IMG/VR virus record: IMGVR_UViG_3300044630_002434
Location: 32,001 to 96,000 of that record
Reading direction: 5' to 3' (one strand)
DNA length: 64,000 nt
Source of the DNA: a virus
In this document: positions 2,134-48,456 of the stretch, piece after piece
How positions within the stretch are numbered: position 1 is the first letter of the stretch
Layout of the letters: each line of letters starts with the position of its first letter
Notes under the pieces: model-generated
What the model saw: only the letters and a program-made list of their open reading frames with translations
What the model was told of the DNA's origin: nothing
The model's database searches: none
Program-made: the position numbers and the translations under genes

Positions 2134-2174
2134 AAAACTATTATAGAGTATTAACCTGACTTTGTCAAGTTAAA

Positions 2175-2300
2175 CGCCAGACGCGCCACCGAAAGGGGTT
2201 AAGGTGACGCGCCTAGCATTTGTGAGTGGGGAGAAAGGGGGGCAACCCCACTCGTATTCGGAGCATAGGGAGAAGGGAGTAAACCCTTGCTCTACGAACT
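2175..2300 (-). ncRNA. candidate three-hairpin small RNA with C-rich anti-SD loops
   Basis: Stems at 2257-2298, 2224-2253 and 2175-2218; loops UUUACUCCCUUCU, UUGCCCCCCUUUCU, UUAACCCCUUUC; G-U pairs work only on the minus strand; extended -10 TGcTAAAGT at about 2306-2314; no credible ORF. Confidence 0.7.
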
Positions 2301-3508: not shown

Positions 3509-3544
3509 AACCCTAGTCTATCATACTAGGTCTGCTTTCGCAAG

Positions 3545-3623
3545 TCCCAAGAGTAGGAATCGAACCTACCGTGCCAAAGCGAGTGATTTACAGTCACCTT
3601 CCCCACCTTGGGGAATCCTTGGG
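3545..3623 (-). tRNA. tRNA-Tyr(GTA), atypical
   Basis: Acceptor CCCAAGG/TCTTGGG+A, anticodon arm GGTGA-CTGTAAA-TCACT, T arm GTAGG-TTCGATT-CCTAC, long variable region, no encoded CCA; own promoter 3643-3671. Confidence 0.85.
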
Positions 3624-7909: not shown

Positions 7910-8136
7910 TAGAACACTCTCCCGTACTCGTTCATAACTACTCCCCCGCCACCGCTAGGTGATGTAACTTCCCATTGTTCGTATGGTGTTGGGTCGTAAT
8001 TATCTCGGCACTCTTTACACCACAGAATGTCCATTCTGTCGTACTTCTCAAACATTTCCACTTTTGGGAAATCTTGTTCGCAGTCCACGCAGAAATCGTT
8101 TTCTGCTGGTATCTCAATTCCAAGCCATTGTGTCAT
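7909..8136 (-). CDS. hypothetical zinc-finger protein (75 aa)
   Basis: CVDC...CKEC; SD AAGGGAG. Confidence 0.7.
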   Translation of the reverse strand: MTQWLGIEIPAENDFCVDCEQDFPKVEMFEKYDRMDILWCKECRDNYDPTPYEQWEVTSPSGGGGVVMNEYGRVF

Positions 8137-8197
8137 TTTGTTCTCCCTTTTCTTTATCGCCCTTTGCGATAGTTCTATCTTACGGACTTTTCTAACT

Positions 8198-8445
8198 TTT
8201 GTCAAGTTAGTCAAAATACTCTATGACAACCGCGCCCACGAAAGAAACCGCACCAATTACTAGAGTTGCGATTAGGTAGGTAGGTGTTATAACTACTGGC
8301 TTTAGTAATCCAATAAACATAAGTTGTAGTTCCAGTAATGCCAATGGCAATGAGCCAATAGCAACATAAGTTAGTACGGCTTGTAAGTTAAATAAAAACA
8401 TCTTGCTCTCCTTTTCTTTATCGCCCCTTGCGATAACTCTATTAT
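8198..8445. repeat. copy 2 of exact 248-bp duplication
   Basis: Identical to 1742-1989. Confidence 0.95.
8207..8401 (-). CDS. small membrane protein (64 aa), copy 2
   Basis: Identical to 1751-1945. Confidence 0.8.
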   Translation of the reverse strand: MFLFNLQAVLTYVAIGSLPLALLELQLMFIGLLKPVVITPTYLIATLVIGAVSFVGAVVIEYFD

Positions 8446-8975: not shown

Positions 8976-9157
8976 TTTGTTCTCCCTCTATCAGTCACTC
9001 CCTGCAACTTGATAAATCAAGTTTAACATACTTACCTGACATTTGTCAAGTCACCGCGTGTTCGGCGTGTCGCAATTTTGTAGCACCCCTTTCCCTAAAA
9101 AATTTCAGTTATGAAAATAAGAAAACCCCACCTTTCGGTGGGGCTTTCCTTTGGTGG

Positions 9158-9310: not shown

Positions 9311-9412
9311 GCTTTTCTCCTTTCCTTATGTAATAATTGTATCATACCTTTATGACATTTTCTGTATTTCGAGAAAATAAACCCCGCCCGTAGGCGGGGC
9401 TTATTTTAGTGG

Positions 9413-19111: not shown

Positions 19112-19189
19112 GTTTTGGTTCCTCCTTTGCCAAGCAAGGCACGCCGTGTGCCTCGCCGTCTTGATGTATTAACTTTATGATAAAAGTTT

Positions 19190-23410: not shown

Positions 23411-23452
23411 ACCCCTCTTGACAGACCAAAATCCAAGGAGTAATCTACCGAT

Positions 23453-23752
23453 ATGAATTCTGAAATATACCTAACCCTTGAAGAGTACAACGACTTTGTT
23501 TCCAAAGCGCACTCTCAATATATGATAAACCGTCTGCAACATACTCCAGCACATGCCTATAAAAAGCATCACCCTGCTGACCTTGCAATCGAAACCGCAT
23601 CATTCTTTGAAGCATCCTATCTAGTCCTTGATTCCTATCTAGATGTAGTTACCGCACGACTAAGGGATGAGAGGGAACGAAAAGAGAAATCTCTAGAGCC
23701 CACCGAAAACAAGAAACCAAAGAAGGAAAGAAAACAGGTAAAAGAAAGATGA
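23453..23752 (+). CDS. hypothetical protein (99 aa)
   Basis: TTGACA-type promoter directly upstream. Confidence 0.65.
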   Translation: MNSEIYLTLEEYNDFVSKAHSQYMINRLQHTPAHAYKKHHPADLAIETASFFEASYLVLDSYLDVVTARLRDERERKEKSLEPTENKKPKKERKQVKER

Positions 23753-32165: not shown

Positions 32166-32708
32166 TTAATCAGAAGAGGCGGTAGATTTTTCTACCGTCT
32201 TTTCTTTTTTCCAAACGCGGAAGAACCCAAGTTCAGAACCAATCACACGAACTCTTTCATAAACCCCTGTGCGCAGTCCCTCTGTGTCAGAACCTGCTTG
32301 GTCACTTGTCGTATCACCCTCAACAACTTCATAACCTACTGGTATCCCCCACTTGCGAATCACCCCAACAACAATACCTACATGGGTTGCTCTTCCTTCT
32401 TTTTCAAAGTCATAGAACGCTAGGTCTCCCATTCTAACTCTCCACCATTGTATCTGTTCAGAGTTTTCTCTTAGCCGTTCATAACCAATATTACAAGATG
32501 CAAACCCCTTTTTACTTGAAACTTCAACTAACTCACTCAAACCATTTTTTGCAAAGCACCACGAAACGAACATGGCAGAGTACGGATTGTTGTTCAACCC
32601 GTACCACTTTCCATACTTGCTATCTCGATTAGGTCCGTTGGTGTAACCAACTTCTTCTAAGGCAGTACCGACAAGTTCGGAAATCTTAATCTTCAATGGA
32701 GTTTGCAT
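32166..32708 (-). CDS. CHAP-domain amidase/peptidase with degenerate catalytic motif
   Basis: KYGKWYG...PYSAMFVSWC...GD..FYDF...HVGIV...VEGDT. Confidence 0.75.
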   Translation of the reverse strand: MQTPLKIKISELVGTALEEVGYTNGPNRDSKYGKWYGLNNNPYSAMFVSWCFAKNGLSELVEVSSKKGFASCNIGYERLRENSEQIQWWRVRMGDLAFYDFEKEGRATHVGIVVGVIRKWGIPVGYEVVEGDTTSDQAGSDTEGLRTGVYERVRVIGSELGFFRVWKKEKTVEKSTASSD

Positions 32709-33104: not shown

Positions 33105-34181
33105 ATGCCTGAAGTATCAATCCCAACGAGTGTACCAACTGCTGGTGACTTATTCGACGCAAAGACGAAACAACTTGCGCGTTTCTGTGAAGAACCAGCG
33201 TGGTCTGCCTATAACCCTTCTATCTGCTACACAGAAGAGCATGGGTATCTCGTACTGCTACGCTCCTCAAACGGCTGGCTACGCGACCACAGACCAGAGT
33301 GGCAAGTAGAAACAGGCGACGAACTTACCACTGAGGATTCCTACGAGAACCCCGGAGAATGGTACCAGGCTTCATATATTAATTCCGTTCTAGGAACAGA
33401 GAAGCATTTTAGAAATAGAATGTTTCTTGCAAGTCTAAACACAAAGACACTCAATCTTTCTTACTTGAAAGAGATAGACCTAACTCAGGCTTACTCACAA
33501 GCCCCCGCAAAACTTATAAGAGGAATAGAAGATGGAAGACTCTACTACGACGGAGAAACGCTACGAATCTCTGCGACGGTATTTGAAATTGGGCACATTA
33601 ATGTTGCTCGTATTTGTTCTGTTGAACTGGACTTAAGCGGAGATACTCCACGCGGTGTTTCGTTTGAGATGTTTGACTCTCCTGTTAATGAAGATACCGT
33701 CGAGAAAAACTGGATGCCAGTTCATAAGTCATCTATTTTTAACCCAGATGATGTAACTTTTGATTATCTTTATTCTTCAGGAAAGACCTACACAATCAAA
33801 GACCGTTCCCTAAAAGAAGTTGGCGGACCAGCACCGTCCGTCCGAGGTGGCTCACAACTTATCGGTTTAGAGAACGGAACCATGCTTGCAATTGTCCACC
33901 AGTGCGTTTCAGCCGAGTACATTAGATTTGCTAACCTAACCAAGGAAGCACTATTCCGTCGTCGTTATGTTCACCGCTTTATTCAGTATGACGAAAAGGG
34001 AAGAATCATAAAGGTTTCCGATATGTTTAACTTCCTAAACAAGTCAGTAGAGTTTGCAGGTGGAATGGCAATACACGAAAACAAACTCCTAGTTAGTTTT
34101 GGTGCCCTAGACTCATCATCACACATAGCATCCATCCCCCTTAAAAACGTCTTGGCGAATCTTCGTCCTCCTCGTCTTTAA
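33105..34181 (+). CDS. five-bladed beta-propeller glycoside hydrolase/transferase-like protein
   Basis: YNPSI, GIEDGRL, EKNWMP, RGGSQ, HRF, VEF..G, SFG..D. Confidence 0.7.
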   Translation: MPEVSIPTSVPTAGDLFDAKTKQLARFCEEPAWSAYNPSICYTEEHGYLVLLRSSNGWLRDHRPEWQVETGDELTTEDSYENPGEWYQASYINSVLGTEKHFRNRMFLASLNTKTLNLSYLKEIDLTQAYSQAPAKLIRGIEDGRLYYDGETLRISATVFEIGHINVARICSVELDLSGDTPRGVSFEMFDSPVNEDTVEKNWMPVHKSSIFNPDDVTFDYLYSSGKTYTIKDRSLKEVGGPAPSVRGGSQLIGLENGTMLAIVHQCVSAEYIRFANLTKEALFRRRYVHRFIQYDEKGRIIKVSDMFNFLNKSVEFAGGMAIHENKLLVSFGALDSSSHIASIPLKNVLANLRPPRL

Positions 34182-34226
34182 GTCCTATGAAGTCGACAAA
34201 ATCGAACTTTCCATTATAGAGGAACA

Positions 34227-34595
34227 ATGAGCGAAGACGGTAATAACGAACGCGAAGAAGAAGTGGATGGCATGATTGAATTCCTCATTGAGTCAGGTGC
34301 TTTAGAACTTACTTCTATAGATAAAAACGGAGACCCTGTTTACAGGATTACTAGTATTTGTAAAGACTTATTCCCTGACCTCTACTACGAACATATGAAG
34401 AACGCGGACGACACTGCTTTTGCTTTATGGCAAAAAGGTTTATTAGAGATTTCCTTTGCTGAAGACAACACTAACTACATCACGATGTCCGCCGAGAACT
34501 ACTTAAGATATCTAGACATTGCTGACCAGTTATCTGAAGACGAAGAAAGTCTTATGTTTGTCTTGATAAATAAGAATATTCTGGACGCTCAGTAG
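34227..34595 (+). CDS. conserved phage hypothetical protein (122 aa)
   Basis: LI..GA.E...D..G...Y.IT...P.LY..H...LW.KG pattern. Confidence 0.75.
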   Translation: MSEDGNNEREEEVDGMIEFLIESGALELTSIDKNGDPVYRITSICKDLFPDLYYEHMKNADDTAFALWQKGLLEISFAEDNTNYITMSAENYLRYLDIADQLSEDEESLMFVLINKNILDAQ

Positions 34596-34633
34596 GACTT
34601 GACACCGTTCTAGGTTTCTTATAATCTACAGAT

Positions 34634-34815
34634 AGTTCTTGATGTATTAGGTGTTTTCTGCCAGTTCTACTAATACATTAAGACCCTTCGCAGAAATGTG
34701 GTTTGTTCTCCTTTCCTACATTTTTTTGGAAGCGCGTTGTCCCGGCACTTGCGAACACGGGGCACACATAAAAACCGCCCCACCGAATCTAATTCTGCGT
34801 AGGGCGGTTTATTTA
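34634..34815 (+). ncRNA. candidate multi-hairpin small RNA with anti-SD loop
   Basis: Promoter TTGACA-17-TAATCT (34599-34627); stems 34637-34683, 34692-34725 (loop UUUGUUCUCCUUUC), 34738-34764; terminator 34772-34815. Confidence 0.65.
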
Positions 34816-34826
34816 TTTATTCAATT

Positions 34827-35342
34827 TTATAGTCTTCTAAACTGGACATTCTTGCTCCAGATTTTTTCAATTTTTACTACTCTGCCTGGTTTCGGAGAGT
34901 GTAAGACTTCTCCGTTTCCTGCATAGATTGCGACGTGGTAAGCATGACCACCTGACGAAAAGAAAAACACCAAGTCACCGACTTGAGCGTCTCCACGAGC
35001 AATCTTTTTTGACTGCTTGTATTGACCTCCAGTAGTTCTTGCTATTTCCTTACCTTTCTTCTTGTAGATGTACTGAGTAAACCCAGAACAGTCAAAACAC
35101 TTAGGATTTGTTCCACCCTTGCAGTAAGGGATTCCTAAATACTTTAGACCAATTTTGTACGTGGATATAGGTTTTGCTAGAAAACTTTCACTAGCCTTTA
35201 TTTCTCCTAGAGTTATATTCGACTTTACTGATAATTCATTAGCGTTGGCTTGACCCTGGGTTACTGGTGGCGATATGACCATAGCGGACATAAGAAGCGC
35301 AGTAACGGTGGTCAAAACCTTGGTTCTGACTAACATCACCAC
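34827..35342 (-). CDS. NlpC/P60 (C40) cell-wall peptidase with signal peptide
   Basis: LGIPY..GG...FDCSGFT...GDLVFF...HVAIY.G. Confidence 0.92.
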   Translation of the reverse strand: MVMLVRTKVLTTVTALLMSAMVISPPVTQGQANANELSVKSNITLGEIKASESFLAKPISTYKIGLKYLGIPYCKGGTNPKCFDCSGFTQYIYKKKGKEIARTTGGQYKQSKKIARGDAQVGDLVFFFSSGGHAYHVAIYAGNGEVLHSPKPGRVVKIEKIWSKNVQFRRL

Positions 35343-37452: not shown

Positions 37453-37785
37453 TTGTATACACTTAAGTTTAAGTGTTTATGTTTTATTGCCTTAGAAAGG
37501 GCGCAGATAGTGGATATTAATTGGAAGTTACCGTTCGAAATCTTAACCGAACTTTTTTTGTTTGTTTTAGGCTGGACTCTGGTTGCATTAGTTGGTTTGA
37601 TTGCACTAGCAATTGTTATTGGTTTACTAAGAGGAACCAGTGAAATCTTTAAGGGAAGCAAAAAGAAAAAGATAGTTAAGACTGAAGAAGAAGTATCGCT
37701 TCAGCCTATGCTTGGTGTTGTCGAACCCCCAGACAATTTAACTAATCTTCAACTTAAAAGACTCTTTGAGCGTGGAGCAGACTAA
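37453..37785 (+). CDS. membrane protein
   Basis: Long hydrophobic stretch; start probably the GTG near 37510. Confidence 0.6.
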   Translation: MYTLKFKCLCFIALERAQIVDINWKLPFEILTELFLFVLGWTLVALVGLIALAIVIGLLRGTSEIFKGSKKKKIVKTEEEVSLQPMLGVVEPPDNLTNLQLKRLFERGAD

Positions 37786-48252: not shown

Positions 48253-48456
48253 AAGTCACCTCGGAAAGTAAACTAGGCAGAAATCCCTGTGTCATTTAGT
48301 CGTTTTCTCCTTTCAAGGACGTTTGCGCGTCGTAAGAAGACTATACCTTAGTCCAAGCAAAAAGCAATAGAGCCACCTTAAAATAGTAAGGTTTATGCTA
48401 TAGTAGTCATACGCGCTGTGAGCGAGTCTACAGTATACACCTTGAAAGGTGACACC

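Follow-up and report, generated by a model that had tools for sequence, protein, structure and literature searches.

We analyzed a 64,000-nucleotide (nt) stretch of viral DNA, hereafter the window, that comprises bases 32001–96000 of a single 119,711-base-pair (bp) virus contig (IMG/VR record IMGVR_UViG_3300044630_002434; 43% G+C). In the 231-nt gap between two converging genes lies a conserved element whose observed features occupy positions 34599–34815. Our preferred reading, to which we assign a probability of roughly 45%, is that the phage here encodes a non-coding RNA of ~180 nt that would mask AAAGGAG-type ribosome-binding sites. As read from its sequence, the element is a well-formed prediction: its features, their conservation, the covariation of helices 1 and 3, a bias to the plus strand, a loop that is predicted to be open and the complementarity of that loop to ribosome-binding sites are the observations from which we infer transcription, both ends of the RNA, binding and an effect on translation. 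The DNA sequencing runs that contain the stretch are lake-water metagenomes. By primase-helicase, the closest named relative is the lake-water Actinomycetia phage DSL-LC01, with 68% amino-acid identity across the part that matched, and large Microbacterium phages come next at ~50% identity. We describe the virus as an uncultured lake phage of actinobacteria, the host phylum being presumed.

Protein-anchored scans place the element in five IMG/VR contigs, and a scan with a 22-nt core gave the same five. Three share the same sequence across 250 nt, and one breaks off inside helix 3 at its contig end. The distinct element sequences number four, those of the window phage and of three close relatives, and the relatives that carry the element are 89–92% identical to the window over 5–7 kb.

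The element begins with a promoter. A -35 box, TTGACA (34599–34604, plus strand), can be read directly; it starts 3 nt past the upstream stop codon and is invariant in all four sequences. Two overlapping -10 boxes stand downstream of it. TATAAT (34620–34625) follows a 15-nt spacer and is kept in three of the four sequences, relative L018 having TGTAGC. The box that we prefer, TAATCT (34622–34627, plus strand), lies 17 nt from the -35 box and reads TAATCT in three sequences and TAGCCT in one, with the TAnnCT form at 17 nt kept in all four. Our consensus promoter scan missed the site because the perfect hexamers are spaced by 15 nt, and the scan allows 16–18 nt. A relaxed scan located a second TTGACA-N17-TAATCT arrangement at 23418 (23418–23455, plus strand), where ACCGAT separates the -10 box from the ATG at 23453 that opens the first rightward gene. 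Since this ATG comes 6 nt after the -10 box, the message of that gene should be leaderless. The 13-letter string TAATCTACNGATA, which runs from the -10 box to the start region, occurs exactly at two sites in the window only, the RNA promoter and 23441–23453; allowing up to two mismatches gives 7 matches where 4.7 are expected, which is no enrichment. Both promoters retain the TAnnCT form in the relative G001, in which the orthologous promoter of the leaderless gene reads TAACCT and the RNA promoter TAGCCT.

The conserved TAnnCT at 17 nt and the exact twin at 23453 together lead us to place the -10 box at 34622–34627 and the start of transcription at about A34634 (plus strand). This A would lie 7 nt past the -10 box and three bases ahead of helix 1, and its counterpart in the twin promoter is the first base of the leaderless ATG at 23453; the ATAG around it is invariant in all four sequences. 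Twelve promoters in the genome fall within one mismatch of the consensus. Of these, the RNA promoter is the only one on the plus strand, and nine stand at the head of the leftward early arm. Exact matches at all 12 hexamer positions occur elsewhere in the genome once with a 16-nt spacer and three times with spacers of 17–18 nt. The hexamers point to a promoter of the host sigma-A type, which suggests, if it points to any phase of infection, early transcription by the host polymerase. The initial annotation had described the RNA as later-expressed; this is unsupported, given a sigma-A-type promoter that shares its -10 box, discriminator and start region exactly with the leaderless gene at 23453.

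The plus strand of 34630–34815 folds with an energy of -54.5 kcal/mol (z = -3.47), and none of 200 shuffles folds as well; for the minus strand z = -2.92, with one of 200 shuffles as good. Helix 1 (34637–34683, plus strand) is a 14-bp stem, 34637–34650 paired with 34670–34683, that closes a 19-nt loop whose sequence varies between relatives, and it is probably a protective 5′ hairpin. Helix 2 (34686–34732, plus strand) has a 10-bp inner stem (34692–34701 with 34716–34725) extended by four outer pairs, and its core is invariant in all four sequences. Four or five of its pairs can form as G-U pairs on the plus strand only. Its 14-nt loop, UUUGUUCUCCUUUC (34702–34715), is the proposed seed and is predicted to be open, with a mean unpaired probability of 0.92. 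Helix 3 (34736–34767, plus strand) contains 7–9 bp and a 13-nt loop, GCACUUGCGAACA. The array closes with a terminator hairpin (34772–34810) and T-rich tail, together 34772–34821, that fold on both strands and could be used in both directions; the tail reads TTTATTTATTTATT on the plus strand and TTTTTAT on the minus strand. The stem is GC-rich and invariant in the three sequences that extend to it, and a simple terminator scan did not flag it because the loop exceeds the 8-nt limit of that scan.

The promoter hexamers, the 14-bp stem, the 10-bp stem with its loop, the third stem and the terminator are therefore all present where the initial annotation had placed them. It had further suggested a switch in which loop 1 pairs with the base of helix 2. 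Both strings, UUUCUGC in the loop and GCAGAAA at the helix base, exist, but UUUCUGC is lost in the relatives L015 and L014 and forcing the pairing costs +12.9 kcal/mol, and we rejected the switch as neither conserved nor energetically affordable. A degenerate transfer RNA (tRNA) was likewise rejected, as the only ARAGORN match in the window is a tRNA-Tyr at 3544–3623.

Covariation was counted on a model-fitted alignment of the four sequences that comprises 176 cells. On the plus strand 98.3% of the cells pair (96.2% in helix 1 and 100% in helix 3), whereas the minus-strand reading of the structure pairs 85.2%; 25 of the 176 cells are G-U, and the plus-strand preference first noted from these wobble pairs is borne out. 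Both partners have changed in four pairs (helix 1, three; helix 3, one), compared with 1.0 ± 0.9 in shuffles, of which 3 of 500 reach four. As a control, sliding the partners by 1–3 columns leaves 41–51% paired. RNAalifold on a plain MAFFT alignment counts two two-sided pair changes, a lower figure that stems from misalignment of L014's paired deletions. In helix 3 of L018, one C-G pair is replaced by U-A and one U-G pair by C-G. A DNA variant in lake run X13 carries deletions at 34643 and 34677, which are mutual partners in helix 1, and a T>C change at 34679 that converts a G-U pair to G-C; it is probably of the L014 type and so does not count as independent evidence.

Two generic marks of a trans-acting small RNA (sRNA) can be recognized here: a structure kept by compensatory change (helices 1 and 3, four sequences) and, at the level of sequence, a promoter and intrinsic terminator of its own that bound a short non-coding stretch. 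Promoter conservation, covariation in helices 1 and 3, the G-U bias and an overlapping open reading frame that is not conserved support the view that the element is a stand-alone non-coding RNA gene on the plus strand, as originally proposed. None of the 24 sequencing runs listed is recorded as RNA. One of them, X24, was guessed to be RNA and was compared with three DNA runs; it yields low-depth contigs only, ~90% alike over much of 6 kb, and the one that covers 34419–34897 spans both converging genes and is uninformative on a small RNA.

Conservation is pronounced around helix 2. Positions 34687–34734 (48 nt) are invariant in a three-way alignment, and the 60-nt interval 34675–34734 is 93% invariant among the three phages, compared with 47–67% in other non-coding intervals. 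The element is absent from relatives whose NlpC/P60 protein, the product of the converging gene, is only 46–51% identical (six loci examined). At five of these loci (L005, L007, L008, L010, and L011), one to three tRNA genes (Thr, Tyr, Asn) come immediately after the NlpC/P60 gene on its own strand, in the place of the RNA locus; ARAGORN finds no tRNA gene at the sixth, L009. A metagenome scan added nothing new, one match being the contig behind L014 and the other a remote 25-residue match.

From the four sequences we built a covariance model, R1, the kind of search that had been called for at the outset. In the phage's own genome at E values up to 10, it returns only the RNA itself, its terminator and a 7-bit match, with no second copy; in G001 it matches the element alone. 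Searches of G003, G004, G005, G006, G007, and DSL-LC01 gave nothing credible (best 7.4 bits). An 18-bit full-length match in G002 was rejected, as it consists of two terminator-like hairpins after a ribonucleotide reductase gene. That site (G002:C1:6216–6421, equivalent to 1495–1700 on the minus strand of L035) is a tandem of strong terminator-like hairpins with a C-rich internal hairpin (z = -5.15), flanked by the ribonucleotide reductase gene and, on the other side, by small genes clustered in the converging orientation. The element has no Rfam family, there being no Rfam match at gathering score across the whole window. A 20-nt core compared with one genome per species gives one match, in a Verrucomicrobiae metagenome-assembled genome, which by arithmetic is about the number expected by chance.

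The loop of helix 2 contains CUCCUUUC, which equals part of the 3′ tail of 16S ribosomal RNA that reads Shine-Dalgarno sequences. On the minus strand, GGAGAACAAA occurs at 8137–8146 and 8976–8985, abutting the ATG codons at 8136 and 8975, and GAAAGGAGAA occurs at 2913–2922 and 9315–9324, 4 nt ahead of the starts at 2908 and 9310. These are the 10-nt loop complements reported earlier before the same four genes, and they stand at the sites then given. A fifth complementary copy, GAAAGGAGAA at 48305–48314, is not followed by a long frame. With the RNA gene's own copy included, matches total three for GGAGAACAAA and four for GAAAGGAGAA, against 0.14 and 0.26 in shuffles. The longest perfect complement of the loop, 12 nt, is found at the 9310 gene. 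Outside the RNA gene there are 35 perfect complementary matches of at least 8 nt genome-wide; 11 lie just ahead of start codons of open frames, and all 11 fall in the leftward early arm. Start regions that reach -12 kcal/mol with the loop make up 34 of 68 in the early arm versus 10 of 107 elsewhere, figures that are rough because the gene calls are crude (the NlpC/P60 gene is missed and some internal starts are taken). The G001 orthologues of the 8136 and 2908 genes retain GGAGAACAAA-ATG and GAAAGGAGAA, respectively, within changed flanks.

Other parts of the RNA show no comparable pattern. Complementary matches to loop 3, considered as a second seed, are at chance level, the best being 10 nt inside the gene at 32166–32708; its 7-nt matches to three early leaders are found among dozens of 7-mers. 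A search for a long antisense target found, besides the RNA itself, no match or complement longer than 13 nt perfect, or 14 nt with one mismatch (19158–19171). The latter site, in the early arm, repeats exactly 13 nt from the 5′ arm of helix 1 (34637–34649; blastn-short E = 0.26), probably by chance, since helix 1 drifts among relatives. Among the early leaders themselves, 1958–1989 and 8414–8445 (minus strand) carry an identical leader and ribosome-binding string, gggcgataaagaAAAGGAGAgcaagATG, before two 64-residue frames that share the same first residues, and a near-identical ribosome-binding site precedes a third gene, at -1560.

On our preferred reading, host sigma-A polymerase would transcribe the RNA from TTGACA-N17-TAATCT on the plus strand, from ~34634 to ~34812–34820, and the transcript would end at the hairpin, which would serve the converging NlpC/P60 gene as a terminator too. 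Helix 1 would shield the 5′ end, a role in which its pairing would matter and its sequence would not. Helix 2 would hold open the 14-nt pyrimidine-rich loop, including CUCCUUUC, which could pair with AAAGGAG-type Shine-Dalgarno regions; the best partners would be the small leftward early genes that start at 8136, 8975, 2908, and 9310, with 10–12 nt of perfect pairing. Such pairing would block binding of the 30S subunit and lower translation without the aid of a chaperone. Chaperone-free masking is proposed because of the anatomy of the RNA and the precedent of the actinobacterial 6C RNA, whose C-rich hairpin loops bind messenger RNAs (mRNAs) without chaperones (PMC6486639).

The same phage encodes a further candidate sRNA at 2172–2298 (minus strand), where the region 2160–2310 folds with -67.3 kcal/mol (z = -7.35). 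A broader and rather doubtful scheme would join the two: a pair of sRNAs made by the host polymerase, one with the GGAG-type loop described here and the other, at 2172–2298, with a GGGG-type loop, would provide an RNA-only early shut-off in a lytic phage. As they accumulate, they would mask, free of chaperones, the strong purine-rich sites of about fifty small early genes, leaderless genes such as the one at 23453 with the twin promoter would escape, and the way a message starts would serve as a timer. If it is true that this RNA and its sibling mask early sites, the phage would use RNA to bring the early phase of infection to a close; taken with its leaderless genes, this would tie two actinobacterial modes of translation initiation to the timing of phage expression.

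Several points weigh against masking of early sites by a dedicated RNA. A 15-nt spacer is short for the perfect hexamers, and the -10 box at 17 nt agrees with TATAAT at three of six positions only. The U-tract of the terminator is interrupted on the plus strand and better on the minus strand, so the hairpin may mainly serve the NlpC/P60 gene. The covariation rests on few events, because the four distinct sequences are ~89–92% identical, and the alignment behind the counts was itself fitted to the model; helix 2 and the terminator, being invariant, carry no covariation evidence. Of the invariant runs in the 6.1-kb three-way alignment, the 48-nt one takes only about 13th place and is no better than coding DNA, and the wholly invariant stems of helix 2, wobble pairs included, would equally fit a sequence-specific protein or a DNA site. 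Translation by itself would keep ribosome-binding sites conserved. The specificity of the loop is a further concern: 44 start regions reach -12 kcal/mol with the real loop, and composition-matched shuffled loops reach it on 40.3 ± 6.4, with 64 of 200 doing at least as well. The match can therefore be put down to composition, a pyrimidine-rich loop against purine-rich ribosome-binding sites, and the early genes fit the loop best because their ribosome-binding sites are the strongest. Of the suggestion in the initial annotation that the RNA shuts off GGAG-type mRNAs, the part that finds support is an open loop that mirrors the ribosome-binding sites of the early arm; specific targeting is not supported, given that composition-matched shuffles perform equally well.

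Other accounts of the locus draw on the same observations. An independently made RNA might act elsewhere, either on host mRNAs with AAAGGAG-type sites, as a form of host shut-off, or by way of a host or phage protein that recognizes hairpin 2. Recognition of a fixed sequence or shape would suit a hairpin that is invariant even in its stems while helix 1 drifts with compensation, and a loop whose specificity does not exceed its composition is in keeping with such an account, as is the host-type, likely early promoter, given that an early RNA which represses early genes from the outset would be odd. We nevertheless consider it unlikely, in that the best matches within the phage all lie at early start sites and the species-genome search with the 20-nt core came out close to chance with its single Verrucomicrobiae match. 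Were the hexamers incidental, or a weak internal promoter, the hairpins could instead form a structured 3′ untranslated end of the upstream operon (33105–34595) that guards its mRNA from 3′ exonucleases. The simple terminator scan finds no terminator-like site between the upstream gene and the RNA, so read-through transcripts would end at the same hairpin; RNA structure and plus-strand bias would be expected equally; and the perfect hexamers are spaced by only 15 nt. This account is unlikely in view of a -35 box that is invariant in all four sequences and placed 3 nt past the stop codon, a -10-to-start region that duplicates that of a bona fide gene promoter, and the rarity of exact 12-of-12 hexamer matches in the genome; an invariant 48-nt hairpin would also be unnecessary for a protective 3′ end. 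That the locus makes no functional RNA at all, and that chance hairpins accompany a two-way terminator and DNA-level sites for protein binding or recombination, we judge improbable. A terminator better suited to the minus-strand gene (TTTTTAT), a core conserved no more than coding DNA, a sample of four sequences, and more distant relatives that lack the element and in five of six loci carry tRNA genes after NlpC/P60 would all agree with it, but compensated changes in two helices, 25 G-U cells that could not pair on the opposite strand or in a DNA cruciform, the z-score of -3.47 and the conserved promoter speak for an RNA.

Two further readings concern the DNA that flanks or overlaps the hairpins. 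Partial read-through into the 3′ ends of the converging NlpC/P60 and glycosyltransferase genes could lower their expression, by cis-antisense pairing or transcription interference. The convergent layout, in which 16 nt separate the hairpin from the NlpC/P60 stop codon, would permit this, and the interrupted plus-strand U-tract could make termination leaky; the strong GC stem is conserved, however, and the invariance of hairpin 2 and the covariation of helices 1 and 3 would go unexplained, which makes such an effect very unlikely as the function of the element. A small protein encoded across the hairpins, from the ATG at 34696 or the GTG at 34651, is barely credible. The frame (34651–34926) is open for 76 codons from the ATG and 91 from the GTG, and its first 39 codons are open in L015 and L018. 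Its length is not kept: the 76 residues from the ATG in the window become 39 in L015, where the frame stops and the GTG start is out of frame, and 46 in L018 (61 from the GTG). Five amino-acid differences fall within 39 codons over the two relatives, several of which coincide with paired changes in helix 3, and the frame crosses the terminator into the antisense of the next gene. The ATG frame has no Shine-Dalgarno sequence (crude score -1 kcal/mol), and the open reading frame has no Pfam match. Translation of this frame had been named early on as one outcome that would tell against an RNA; with neither frame nor length conserved, no ribosome-binding site and no family, we rejected it.

The upstream gene (34227–34595, plus strand) is an open reading frame for a 122-residue protein that belongs to no Pfam or PHROG family, for which a protein search found 38 homologues at 66–100% identity. 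The converging gene (34827–35342, minus strand) encodes an NlpC/P60 peptidase (Pfam PF00877, E = 2e-24) with an N-terminal hydrophobic leader. Population variants in lake run X13 include a GAA insertion at 34253, near the start of the 122-residue gene, a 12-nt insertion at 35195, within the NlpC/P60 gene, and the replacement of a 75-nt stretch at 37592–37668 by 84 different letters.

We compared the predicted RNA with several known systems. The 6C model of Rfam (RF01066) has no match at gathering score in the window and is not among the nine matches listed at E values up to 10 for 34500–34900. The present RNA would be about twice as long as 6C. The likeness to 6C (also B11) nonetheless extends to the presumed host phylum, to stacked hairpins and to a pyrimidine-rich loop that faces purine-rich mRNA, and 6C is reported to act without Hfq- or ProQ-type chaperones (PMC6486639). 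Whereas 6C uses at least two C-rich hairpin loops as binding sites (PMC6486639), the RNA described here has a single pyrimidine-rich loop, which is U/C-mixed (UUCUCCUUUC) with a longest C run of 2, and loops 1 and 3 are of mixed composition. The present RNA is also encoded by a phage, while 6C is chromosomal.

The cuckoo/alpha-r14 RNAs of the Alphaproteobacteria likewise combine adjacent hairpins with a loop motif that resembles an anti-Shine-Dalgarno sequence, and repression of translation at ribosome-binding sites is proposed for them (PMC4615179). They carry CCUCCUCCC in each of two to four hairpin loops (PMC4615179); here CCUCCUCCC is absent, and one loop of four contains UUCUCCUUUC. The host phylum differs as well, and the present RNA has no Rfam match. 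The best, albeit weak, Rfam match is to LhrC of Listeria (RF00616) at 34621–34728 (plus strand), with 21.4 bits against a gathering score of 110 (E = 0.65), and we therefore do not regard the RNA as a member of the LhrC family. LhrC pairs with ribosome-binding sites through CU-rich loops.

Within the phage, the candidate at 2172–2298 offers a parallel. Its open loops, UUGCCCCCCUUUCU (14 nt) and UUAACCCCUUUC (12 nt), end in CCUUUC, as does UUUGUUCUCCUUUC, and both RNAs are proposed to mirror early ribosome-binding sites. The core of its loops is C6, compared with UUCUCC here; it belongs to the opposite strand and the opposite arm, and R1 finds no match there. In phage T4, the protein endonuclease RegB silences early messages through their GGAG ribosome-binding sites. 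The RNA considered here would mask such a site instead of cutting it, and the analogy is one of outcome only.

To our knowledge, few regulatory RNAs of lytic phages have known targets, and a narrow literature search found no description of a regulatory RNA in phages of the abundant low-GC freshwater actinobacteria. Since the RNA lacks those defining features of 6C, cuckoo/alpha-r14, and LhrC that we tested, it would constitute a separate RNA family, though one that would work as they do. Judged by its sequence, it is likely a new small RNA of the base-pairing type, known to date from a single narrow clade of lake phages.

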